Positions 12,163 to 28,444 of a stretch of 64,000 nt of DNA are shown here, in pieces (the stretch's first letter is position 1; the number at the start of each line of letters is the position of its first letter). A model generated the notes under the pieces. That model was not told the DNA's origin. It did no database searches and saw only the letters and a program-made list of their open reading frames with translations. Made by a program: the position numbers and the translations under genes. Source of the stretch: Candidatus Iainarchaeum sp. GTDB taxonomy: Archaea; Iainarchaeota; Iainarchaeia; Iainarchaeales; Iainarchaeaceae. The stretch lies in NCBI GenBank assembly GCA_043812975.1, contig JBDRLP010000027.1:1-64000 (forward strand), given 5' to 3'.

Positions 12163-12423
12163 TCAAAAAGCAAAACCCAATAAATCAAGAAGAATAAGAA
12201 GAATTATCCCGGGAATCCCTCCAAACGCAGTTATCAGGACACTCCAAATATTTATTTCAATATTTACAAACGGGAAAAAATTAAGCAAAACAAGAACTAC
12301 CAAACCAAGAAAACTATTGATTAGTAAAACAACAATTTTTTTGCCTAATTTTAATGCAAAGAAAATCGCAATAATTACTACTGCTGCAGTTAAAACAAAC
12401 CCAATTATTGGATCTAAAGCCAT
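12163..12423 (-). CDS. Pro-sigmaK processing inhibitor BofA family membrane protein
   Basis: LLINSFLGLVVLVLLN...INIWSVLITAFGGIPG pattern typical of BofA-like proteins. Confidence 0.8.
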   Translation of the reverse strand: MALDPIIGFVLTAAVVIIAIFFALKLGKKIVVLLINSFLGLVVLVLLNFFPFVNIEINIWSVLITAFGGIPGIILLILLDLLGFAF

Positions 12424-12470
12424 TAAAGAAACAGGATTGAAATTAATTTAAGCCTAATGTTTAAAACAAA

Positions 12471-12643
12471 TCAGCGAATTAGTGCTATAAGAGTGGAGGA
12501 TTGGCCTCTATAGACTTTACGTACGGCAAAGCCAACACGAGAGGCCCTCAGTTTCGGGACAGAGACCGAGTCAACTCCTTCTACAAATTTTTTCCAGTTC
12601 AATTAAAATCCCCCACCCCTCAGAGGTGAAACTCTGACGCCAA
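12471..12643 (-). ncRNA. Putative novel structured ncRNA with a perfect four-way junction (core 12489-12620)
   Basis: Four contiguous helices of 14, 6, 6 and 7 bp. G.U pairs form only on the minus strand. Upstream TTTAAATA box at 12680-12687; no ORF. Confidence 0.65.
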
Positions 12644-12740
12644 AATTTAACATTTACAACTACTATCATACGCCATTGATATTTAAAAAGATATAAGTAT
12701 ACTAAATATATCAACTATATTTTTTATAGTTGGTGACTTT

Positions 12741-13049
12741 TTGGAACAAAATAATTTTTTCAGGAAAACAAGCGATTTCGTAGCAAAGAAACACAATATC
12801 GCAATAGTGCGAATTTTGTTGAAAAGCACACAGGGCCTTGGTTTTAATGCATTAATGAAACAGATTTCGCCAATAACCCCGAGAATACTTTCAACCAGAC
12901 TGGCAGAACTTGAAAATGAACAACTAATCCAGAAGAACCTCGTATTAGGGAATAAACCTAAAGTAGAATATCGACCATTACCAAAAGCACTAGGATTATC
13001 AAAAGCTATTTTTGAGTTAGAAAAATGGGGTAAAAAGGAACTTGGTTAA
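12741..13049 (+). CDS. HxlR-family winged-helix transcriptional regulator
   Basis: GFNALMKQISPITPRILSTRLAELE...PKVEY...LEKWG HxlR pattern. Confidence 0.88.
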   Translation: MEQNNFFRKTSDFVAKKHNIAIVRILLKSTQGLGFNALMKQISPITPRILSTRLAELENEQLIQKNLVLGNKPKVEYRPLPKALGLSKAIFELEKWGKKELG

Positions 13050-13104
13050 CATACCACAACGTATAAATTATTCAATCGTCCTTGATTAAATAAAAGGTGA
13101 TCCA

Positions 13105-13341
13105 ATGACAAAATTCAAGATTATTTATAATAGGAATGATTGTGTTGCAGCAGGCCCTTGTGCGGCTGTTGATTCAGATCACTTTGAAATAAACCCAAAA
13201 GATGGCAAGGCGGACTTAGTTGGCGGGAAGGAAACAAGCCCCGGTATTTGGGAACTGGAAATAGAAAATGACGAAAATGCCAATCAAGCAGTGGAAGTTT
13301 GTCCTGCAGCAGTCATTTCAATAAAAAAAATTGAAGACTAA
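13105..13341 (+). CDS. Small single-cluster ferredoxin (likely 3Fe-4S)
   Basis: CVAAGPC...CP motif with the second Cys replaced by Ala; GGTGA RBS. Confidence 0.88.
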   Translation: MTKFKIIYNRNDCVAAGPCAAVDSDHFEINPKDGKADLVGGKETSPGIWELEIENDENANQAVEVCPAAVISIKKIED

Positions 13342-13421
13342 AAACAATTAGTTTTTCTAAAAGATTTTTTGACTTATTAGTTAGTTTAATTAATCCGGAA
13401 AACACATATCTTATCGAGGGG

Positions 13422-13745
13422 TTGATAATGGAAACAGATAAATTAATGCAAATTACTCATTTACCAAAGCAAGACGGAATAAAAAAACAAGCACTAATTA
13501 ATGCGATTGAAAAAAGCTATAATAAATTAAACCGTTTTTTACCTGGAAAATTAATGTTGGAAATTCATTTCAGGGAAAGCCGAAAACAAGGCAATCGGGA
13601 ACAATTTGAAGTAAAAGCTAATGCTAATGTAGCAGGAATTTCACTCCACTCAAAGTTCATTGATTGGGATTCCGAAAAGGCACTAAAACGAGTATTAGCA
13701 GTACTTGAAAAAGAAGCCATCAAAGCCAAGACCCCCAAAAAGTAA
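13422..13745 (+). CDS. Stand-alone HPF/RaiA-like ribosome-associated protein (putative)
   Basis: LEIHFRES..G.R.QFEVKA...DWD...AL..VL..LEKE pattern resembles the archaeal HPF-like domain. Confidence 0.55.
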   Translation: MIMETDKLMQITHLPKQDGIKKQALINAIEKSYNKLNRFLPGKLMLEIHFRESRKQGNREQFEVKANANVAGISLHSKFIDWDSEKALKRVLAVLEKEAIKAKTPKK

Positions 13746-28341: not shown

Positions 28342-28444
28342 CTCAGCCTGATGCGATTAAGGGTTGAAAAGCTACTTGTTGCAGGCTTAGGAGAGCAATA
28401 CGCTGAAGACGTATGTGTCGCGGGTTCAAATCCCGCCGTTCCCA
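28332..28444 (+). tRNA. tRNA-Phe (GAA) with a 39-nt D-loop intron (28351-28389)
   Basis: GGGAACG/CGTTCCC acceptor; ATACG-CTGAAGA-CGTAT anticodon arm. A perfect BHB motif restores the GCTC-AGCCTGGGA-GAGC D arm after splicing. Confidence 0.9.

Follow-up and report, generated by a model that had tools for sequence, protein, structure and literature searches.

Dual-function RNAs are known from bacteria, among them SgrS/SgrT and RNAIII/hld, and leaders that sequester the Shine-Dalgarno (SD) sequence include the ROSE and fourU RNA thermometers and anti-SD hairpins. The known targets of HxlR-, YodB- and HypR-type regulators are enzymes that detoxify aldehydes, quinones or oxidants, and these regulators rely on thiol-based sensing, while the 45-residue Sra of Escherichia coli is a small, basic, stress-induced, ribosome-associated protein. 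Here we compare these systems with a locus in a 64,000-nucleotide (nt) stretch of the archaeon Candidatus Iainarchaeum sp. (contig JBDRLP010000027.1, positions 1 to 64,000; hereafter the window). The minus strand at 12643-12471 of the window (hereafter the segment) had been described in a first-pass annotation, made from the sequence alone, as an independently transcribed noncoding RNA (ncRNA) folding into a perfect four-way junction. We consider it quite likely that the segment is instead a separately transcribed messenger RNA (mRNA) of ~190 nt for a conserved, mostly unannotated basic protein of 43 residues, and not an ncRNA.

Small-protein-encoding RNAs (spRNAs) have been described in Methanosarcina mazei (10.1101/2025.10.28.685009). 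The segment resembles both the spRNAs and the dual-function RNAs in being short, apparently separately transcribed, strongly folded and small-RNA-like, in holding a small open reading frame (ORF) and in a likely tie to stress. It differs from them in that it has no sequence relation to either group and nothing here indicates an antisense or target-pairing role.

Conservation of the small ORF

A mechanical list of ORFs places a frame of 43 codons plus a TGA stop at 12471-12602 on the minus strand, with a TTG start at 12602-12600 that is immediately preceded by a TAA codon. Its product is MNWKKFVEGVDSVSVPKLRASRVGFAVRKVYRGQSSTLIALIR, with a net charge of about +7. The search for homologues in related genomes that the first-pass annotation had proposed was productive: of 60 relatives, eight, all in the same genus or family, yielded DNA homologues (67-89% identity), and when 196 genomes of the order were searched in all six frames with a profile of the nine proteins, 24 had matches. 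Within the family, 16 of 22 genomes have a match besides the one that carries the window (G000; related genomes are denoted G001, G002, etc.), and outside it matches occur in the families f28 (2/2), f9 (2/4), f6 (1/2), f10 (1/1) and f16 (1/1). The protein profile thereby reaches homologues beyond detectable DNA similarity.

The pattern of change among these homologues is that of a coding sequence. In the nine-sequence DNA alignment, the conserved blocks GTTTCACCTC and GGTGGGGG are followed by (A/T)TG-AAY-TGG, and the sole gap within the core is three bases long, as are all gaps inside the ORF in this alignment and in a larger one of 19 sequences. All nine keep an open frame of 43-45 codons, in which the replacements are conservative (K/R, I/L/V, F/Y, A/S), and in the closest relative the stop has changed from TGA to TAA while the codons before it have changed synonymously. 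Pairwise divergence at codon positions 1, 2 and 3 is 0.344, 0.268 and 0.603 among 17 family members and 0.403, 0.341 and 0.623 among all 22 full-length matches. The Nei-Gojobori ratio of nonsynonymous to synonymous divergence (dN/dS) is 0.06-0.28 in eight of ten pairs, the other two being saturated at synonymous sites. The start codon is ATG or TTG in 22/22, preceded in the family by GAGGTGGGGG, GGTGGGG or GGAGG at a distance of 4-9 nt, and other frames over the ORF span are open in no more than 4 of the 22 loci.

The 22 proteins share the pattern M-[ND]-W-x-x-[FY]-[VIA]-...-VP[KR][ILMF][KR]-...-S-x-T-L-...-[RK]. Within it, Ser35/36 is encoded variously by TCC, TCT, TCA, TCG and AGC across relatives, and such retention of an amino acid through different codons points to selection on the amino acid itself. 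Comparative evidence thus shows that the small ORF is conserved as a protein-coding gene in this DPANN family and, at greater distance, in further families of the order. The claim that the segment is noncoding gives way to a 43-codon ORF kept as protein, with three-base periodicity, low dN/dS and in-frame indels.

Three points temper this reading. The 22 full-length matches contain no internal stops, a count that is partly a product of construction because each ORF was extended from its profile match to its stop. The 22 genomes are mutually related, so that counts across them overstate independence. Finally, a search of public sequencing runs for the locus returned four DNA runs, the best with 0.41 of the sampled words, and no RNA run.

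Folding of the message and its ribosome-binding site

The minimum free energy (MFE) fold of the segment reaches -60.8 kcal/mol, at a z-score of -3.09 against dinucleotide shuffles, 2 of 200 of which were as stable as the native sequence. It consists of an outer helix and a 5' hairpin (loop UUUCAC) of 6 bp each, and of helices P1 (13 bp), P2, P3 and P4. All the helices drawn in the first-pass annotation are thus recovered, including the outer helix UUGGCG/CGCUGA and the hairpin UCAGAG/CUCUGA, and the junction has no unpaired bases, just as proposed. P1 itself stands, at 13 bp rather than the 14 bp claimed, because the fourteenth pair competes with the 5' hairpin. The plus strand is much less stable (-43.5 kcal/mol, z -1.59), and the call of the minus strand was therefore right.

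As 64 kb could yield a z-score near -3 by chance, 90 random 173-nt windows from the same stretch were folded. Their z-scores had a mean of 0.03, a standard deviation of 0.97 and a minimum of -2.06, with 0/90 at -3, and the stability of the segment therefore exceeds chance. By the comparison with shuffles that had been suggested as a check, the segment is exceptional. It is also an island of higher G+C content (0.43-0.47, versus 0.23-0.34 in its surroundings) and is single-copy in the genome (1.24 Mb, 68 contigs, 94% complete). The drawing of the RNA was accurate, and its fold is statistically exceptional.

Read as a message, the helices are made of translation signals and codons. The SD sequence GGGGUGGGGG (12610-12619, minus strand), 7 nt upstream of the start codon, makes up the 5' strand of P1 (12619-12607) together with the spacer. 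The 3' end of the 16S ribosomal RNA (rRNA) of this genome reads ...GGATCACCTCCT and is complementary to the SD sequence. The 3' strand of P1, AAUCCUCCACUCUU (12489-12502, minus strand), spans codons 35-38 (Ser-Ser-Thr-Leu, read TCC-TCC-ACT-CTT) and the last part of codon 34, and it resembles an anti-SD sequence because it is pyrimidine-rich. TCC accounts for 8.5% of serine codons genome-wide and is used twice at this site, where more distant relatives have TCT, TCA, TCG or AGC. P2 includes positions 1 and 2 of the start codon, and P3 and P4 are coding sequence.

A second potential partner of the SD sequence lies upstream of it. The hairpin UCAGAG-UUUCAC-CUCUGA in the 5' untranslated region (UTR; 12620-12637, minus strand) carries a conserved box, GUUUCACCUC, that copies the 16S anti-SD sequence CACCUC (12623-12628). 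In this hairpin GTTTCACC is invariant in the nine-sequence alignment, and a CACC...GGTGG arrangement occurs in 12/22 loci. The ribosome-binding site here, at 12610-12619, and in the relatives is an unusually long, near-invariant G-run, GGTGGGGG. Of 735 long ORFs in this genome, one has GGTGGGG and 73 have GGTG in the 20 nt upstream, and most genes here seem to be without a strong SD sequence.

The 22 homologues were folded as 45 nt of 5' UTR plus the ORF. Against dinucleotide shuffles the z-score was negative in 20/22 and at or below -2 in 8/22. Across these folds and that of the segment, z-scores lie between -3.09 and -3.8 in G000, G001 and G006. When synonymous codons were permuted within each ORF, leaving the protein, codon composition and UTR unchanged, the mean z-score of the homologues was -1.50 (negative in 19/22, at or below -2 in 7/22), compared with +0.28 (standard deviation 0.76; 0/45 at or below -2) for 45 control gene starts of this genome. 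The G000 ORF also uses rare G+C-rich codons, with a G+C content of 0.46 versus 0.34 in the flanks. Selection for a compact mRNA fold is likely.

All 17 family members have the SD sequence paired, at least in part, in their MFE folds, with partners that vary. Codons 35-38 pair with it in G000, G001, G002, G005, G006, G017 and G021, and codons 38-40 in G015. In G003, G004, G010 and G012 it is wholly or almost wholly paired with the upstream CACC(UC) box, and in G014, G020, G011 and G008 it is partly paired with the 5' UTR, with G020 and G011 also pairing it partly with codons 35-37. Pairing of the SD sequence to the 3' end of the ORF has a probability of 0.48 in native sequences and 0.30 after codon permutation.

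These results bring into view a dual function, a coding message whose compact fold is itself selected as a thermosensor, a factor-responsive gate or a stabilizer that locks the SD sequence and start codon. Such a reading extends the explanation as an mRNA rather than competing with it, with the junction used in this genus and other folds elsewhere, and we hold it tentatively, at less than even odds. In its favor are the strongly negative z-scores of G000, G001 and G006, the excess of folding over codon permutations relative to control genes, the G+C-rich codon choice that includes the doubled TCC at the P1 site, the native preference for SD pairing to the 3' end of the ORF, and the consensus fold of the nine closest sequences, in which RNAalifold recovers P1 and part of P4 plus a different small hairpin. 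Gating by occlusion of the SD sequence is a plausible specific mechanism on the predicted folds: with the SD sequence paired to codons 35-38, or to the anti-SD copy in the 5' UTR, translation would be limited or gated. The fold may then restrict ribosome access, so that translation would proceed mainly on nascent RNA or after the structure opens, a proposal to which we give roughly one chance in three.

Several results speak against gating and dual function. Mean SD pairing probability is 0.80 in native sequences and 0.78 after codon permutation, so overall occlusion scarcely differs. When the junction was mapped onto the 19-sequence alignment and paired cells were counted against slid controls, 63.1% of cells were paired versus 42-47% in the controls, a value flattered because the structure was derived from one of the 19 sequences. 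By helix, pairing was 74% for the P1 core, 52% for P2, 51% for P3, 53-72% for P4 and 50% for the outer helix. RNAalifold found no consensus pairs in the 19 sequences, and in the nine-sequence fold the covariation term contributed -0.32 of -15.98 kcal/mol. No helix shows convincing covariation in either alignment, and synonymous sites are near saturation between genera. Only G000 and G001 show the complete junction in their MFE folds. This exact four-way arrangement is limited to this species and its closest relative, and the notion of an RNA defined by that junction, one not kept in the other relatives, falls with it.

The predicted fold resembles known SD-sequestering leaders in that the SD sequence is paired, as are (in this species) the start codon's first two bases, with several G.U pairs, and in the conserved upstream anti-SD copy CACCUC. 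It is unlike them in that the main partner would lie in the coding region, about 105 nt downstream, and in that it has no Rfam match.

Promoter region and neighboring genes

Signals for a separate transcription unit flank the small ORF, as had been claimed. The TATA box TTTAAATA is present at 12680-12687 on the minus strand, where the first-pass annotation put it, and a TATA-like box lies at the equivalent place, 52-91 nt ahead of the start codon, in 21/22 loci. From its position, transcription would start ~23-26 nt downstream of TTTAAATA and leave a 5' UTR of about 50-55 nt. Directly 3' of the stop is the T-rich tract TTTGTTTT (12463-12470, minus strand), likely an archaeal terminator, with a similar tract in 10/22 loci.

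Between this promoter and a divergent gene lie two palindromes. Box B (12697-12712; consensus TATAC-N3-GTATA) is found in 19/22 loci with one mismatch allowed and sits just upstream of the TATA box, which follows it by ~10 nt. Box A (12714-12730; ACTATA-N5-TATAGT), ~20 nt from box B, occurs in a loose form in 18/22 loci, and its exact pattern occurs once in the 1.24-Mb genome. The divergent gene, at 12741-13049 on the plus strand, encodes an HxlR-family winged-helix regulator of 102 amino acids without cysteine (PF01638, E 2.5e-10). A look-alike divergent ORF is present in 21/22 loci, the remaining locus being cut by a contig end; 17 of these ORFs align at 36-86% identity, and in the 17 loci measured the start codons of the small ORF and the regulator are 103-160 nt apart.

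Box B is a candidate operator of the HxlR-type regulator; box A may be an operator too, the TATA region of the divergently transcribed regulator gene, or both. In the usual manner of regulator and target pairs in this family, the HxlR-type protein would bind boxes A and B and control the small gene, and we lean toward such control as rather probable. Two considerations weigh on the other side: box A may be no more than the TATA region of the regulator gene itself, and what points to HxlR control is gene order and conserved palindromes, and only these. A complex prediction with two HxlR-type copies and the small protein scored 0.00, which is no evidence either way. The arrangement is like that of HxlR, YodB and HypR systems in that a PF01638 gene stands head to head with its presumed target, with palindromes between the promoters. 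It is unlike them in that the presumed target is a 43-residue protein, and thiol-based sensing cannot apply to the window's regulator because it has no cysteine.

On the minus strand, 47 nt downstream of the small ORF, lies a gene for a BofA-family membrane protein of 86 amino acids (12163-12423; PF07441, E 8.4e-12, 45.5 bits versus a cut-off of 26.1). It is preceded by a separate TATA-like element, TTAAATTAAT. The first-pass annotation had called the gene BofA-like and given it an apparent TATA box of its own. The position of the gene allows the small ORF to be read as a regulatory upstream ORF, encoding a leader peptide that controls the BofA-like gene. The shared strand and short distance agree with such a reading, and a BofA look-alike follows in 15/17 family loci, presence in relatives being judged by resemblance since the Pfam-scanned copy is the window's only. 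Yet the spacing ranges from about 40 to about 205 nt, and the T-tract after the stop and the separate TATA-like box stand between the two genes. G008, G009 and all five loci outside the family (0/5) lack a BofA-like gene downstream, while the small ORF and the HxlR-type gene persist. Conservation also spans the whole peptide and not merely an arrest-type C-terminal stretch. We regard a leader peptide as very unlikely. Because the BofA-like gene is not constant and the HxlR-type gene is, the invariant partner of the small ORF is the regulator gene.

On the plus strand, the HxlR-type gene opens a run at 12741-13745 that continues with genes for a single-cluster ferredoxin (PF13459) and, at a borderline score, an S30AE/HPF-like protein (13422-13745; 23.4 bits versus a cut-off of 23.7). 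This trio recurs in most related loci.

The small protein and its significance

The small protein has nine lysine or arginine residues versus two acidic ones, and no cysteine. AlphaFold2, given a 27-row alignment, returned a predicted local distance difference test (pLDDT) score of 65.7 and a predicted template modeling (pTM) score of 0.19, with short helices at residues 3-7 and 36-42 only, and the protein is predicted to be mostly disordered. Among 5.8 billion protein clusters, five relatives had already been called, unnamed or as "hypothetical," the window's own protein not being among them. HMMER, run exhaustively against 1.84 billion representatives, found 18 relatives, nearly all stand-alone proteins of 43-61 amino acids, and the named records of relatives are from Candidatus Diapherotrites. 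A literature search at the level of abstracts and listings found no publication on the family. By these sequence searches, the small protein belongs to a new, narrowly distributed family.

A genome-contig scan with the nine-row alignment gave 21 loci, 15 of them from Methanothrix or Methanotrichaceae and one from Obscuribacterales, and these had 35-43% identity over residues 1-32. Two of the Methanothrix-type loci were translated; in both the match was an internal DWRKFVE stretch of a long protein and was rejected as chance, the other 14 not having been inspected.

The regulation and mode of action of the small protein can be sketched in outline. It would be a stress-responsive factor and, basic and largely disordered as it is, might act bound to something larger: RNA, the ribosome or another protein, for example. 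Binding of this kind is a guess, and any single partner is doubtful; the ribosome or RNA is suggested because of the S30AE-like neighbor. Size, strong positive charge and predicted disorder are shared with Sra-type proteins, and an S30AE/HPF-like gene lies nearby (13422-13745). The searches found no sequence similarity to any solved or named protein, and ribosome binding would be a lead by analogy. Our best guess for the whole is a stress protein under HxlR control, with its mRNA fold gating translation.

The searches for relatives of known function count against any firm assignment. Pfam gave one chance match, to Whi5, in one of nine members (E 0.0077); NCBIfam gave no match to the small protein; and PHROGs gave one match at E 0.23 and no usable relative. 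Sequences in the PDB gave no match at E <= 10, and the ESM Atlas gave no usable match. With no database relative and a weak AlphaFold model, the function of the small protein is a guess.

A more elaborate proposal, which we consider improbable, would make the segment a dual-purpose element. It would encode a new family of disordered, highly basic 43-residue proteins, found only in Diapherotrites-like DPANN archaea, and an HxlR-type regulator without cysteine would have this family as its one conserved target, while selection at synonymous sites would lock the SD sequence between two competing anti-SD copies, one in the 5' UTR and one in codons 35-38. Translation would then occur only cotranscriptionally or on a physical or protein signal.

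A purely noncoding RNA, with an incidental ORF and conservation arising from RNA structure or sequence, would account for the exceptionally stable, strand-specific fold, the G+C island within an A+T-rich spacer and the promoter of its own. It is hardly credible beside the three-base periodicity of substitution, a dN/dS well below 1, exclusively in-frame indels, a conserved start codon and SD sequence, amino acids kept through different codon families, a protein profile that finds homologues where DNA similarity is gone, and the lack of a consensus structure.

The first-pass annotation did correctly find no match to known RNA families. At the gathering score, a window-wide Rfam scan gave four transfer RNA (tRNA) matches only, none at the segment; a permissive scan of 12350-12800 gave one match to a small nucleolar RNA model at chance level (E 1.3, 17 bits versus a cut-off of 100); and ARAGORN found no tRNA at the segment. 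Identities as 5S rRNA, signal recognition particle RNA and RNase P RNA were rejected because all three are present above cut-off elsewhere in the genome (C29:19027-19142, C58:6844-7117 and C12:5796-6107, respectively). The hairpin ribozyme and U1 small nuclear RNA are alike only in predicted shape, with four helices and no unpaired bases. The segment differs from both in that it has no Rfam match, its junction is lost in relatives and its helices come from coding sequence. Archaeal RNase P RNA has one further match, a partial one near a contig end (G000:C22:7438-7569; 42.7 bits, below cut-off, model positions 36-191). The window also holds a partial tRNA match at 28384-28436 on the plus strand (35.8 bits, model positions 9-63 only), uncalled by ARAGORN, that could be an intron-bearing tRNA, a fragment or a split gene.

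Shorter paralogues of 29-53 amino acids share only the first ~22 residues of the small protein (MNWxKF[VI]...VP[RK]I[KR]) and then diverge, and each is preceded by its own GAGGTGG. A profile search located one in this genome (C37:8916-9011) and others at L061, L062 and L059. Two of them (G014 and G011) adjoin ORFs that look like thioredoxins by a WCGPC motif. That these paralogues share an N-terminal stretch and then diverge would fit a precursor of a modified or exported peptide, with a conserved leader and a variable C-terminal core, but this is next to incredible given that no modifying enzyme, protease or exporter was seen among ORFs within about 1.5 kb (by eye, with the window's neighbors scanned), that there are no cysteines, that the S-[ST]-T-L motif at the C-terminal end is also conserved and that the genomes are tiny.

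A convincing "four-way junction" in an A+T-rich archaeal spacer can thus turn out to be the message of a small protein, and in structured-RNA pipelines guided by G+C islands and folding energy, a test of coding potential should come first. The protein family described here is almost always missed by gene callers, and gene order links it to an HxlR-type regulator. Its hosts have genomes of about 1 Mb, in which almost all genes still kept should matter. The excess of folding over synonymous controls offers a testable case of selection on mRNA structure at an archaeal ribosome-binding site, and, if true, the dual-purpose reading would make this locus an archaeal translational switch built partly of coding sequence.

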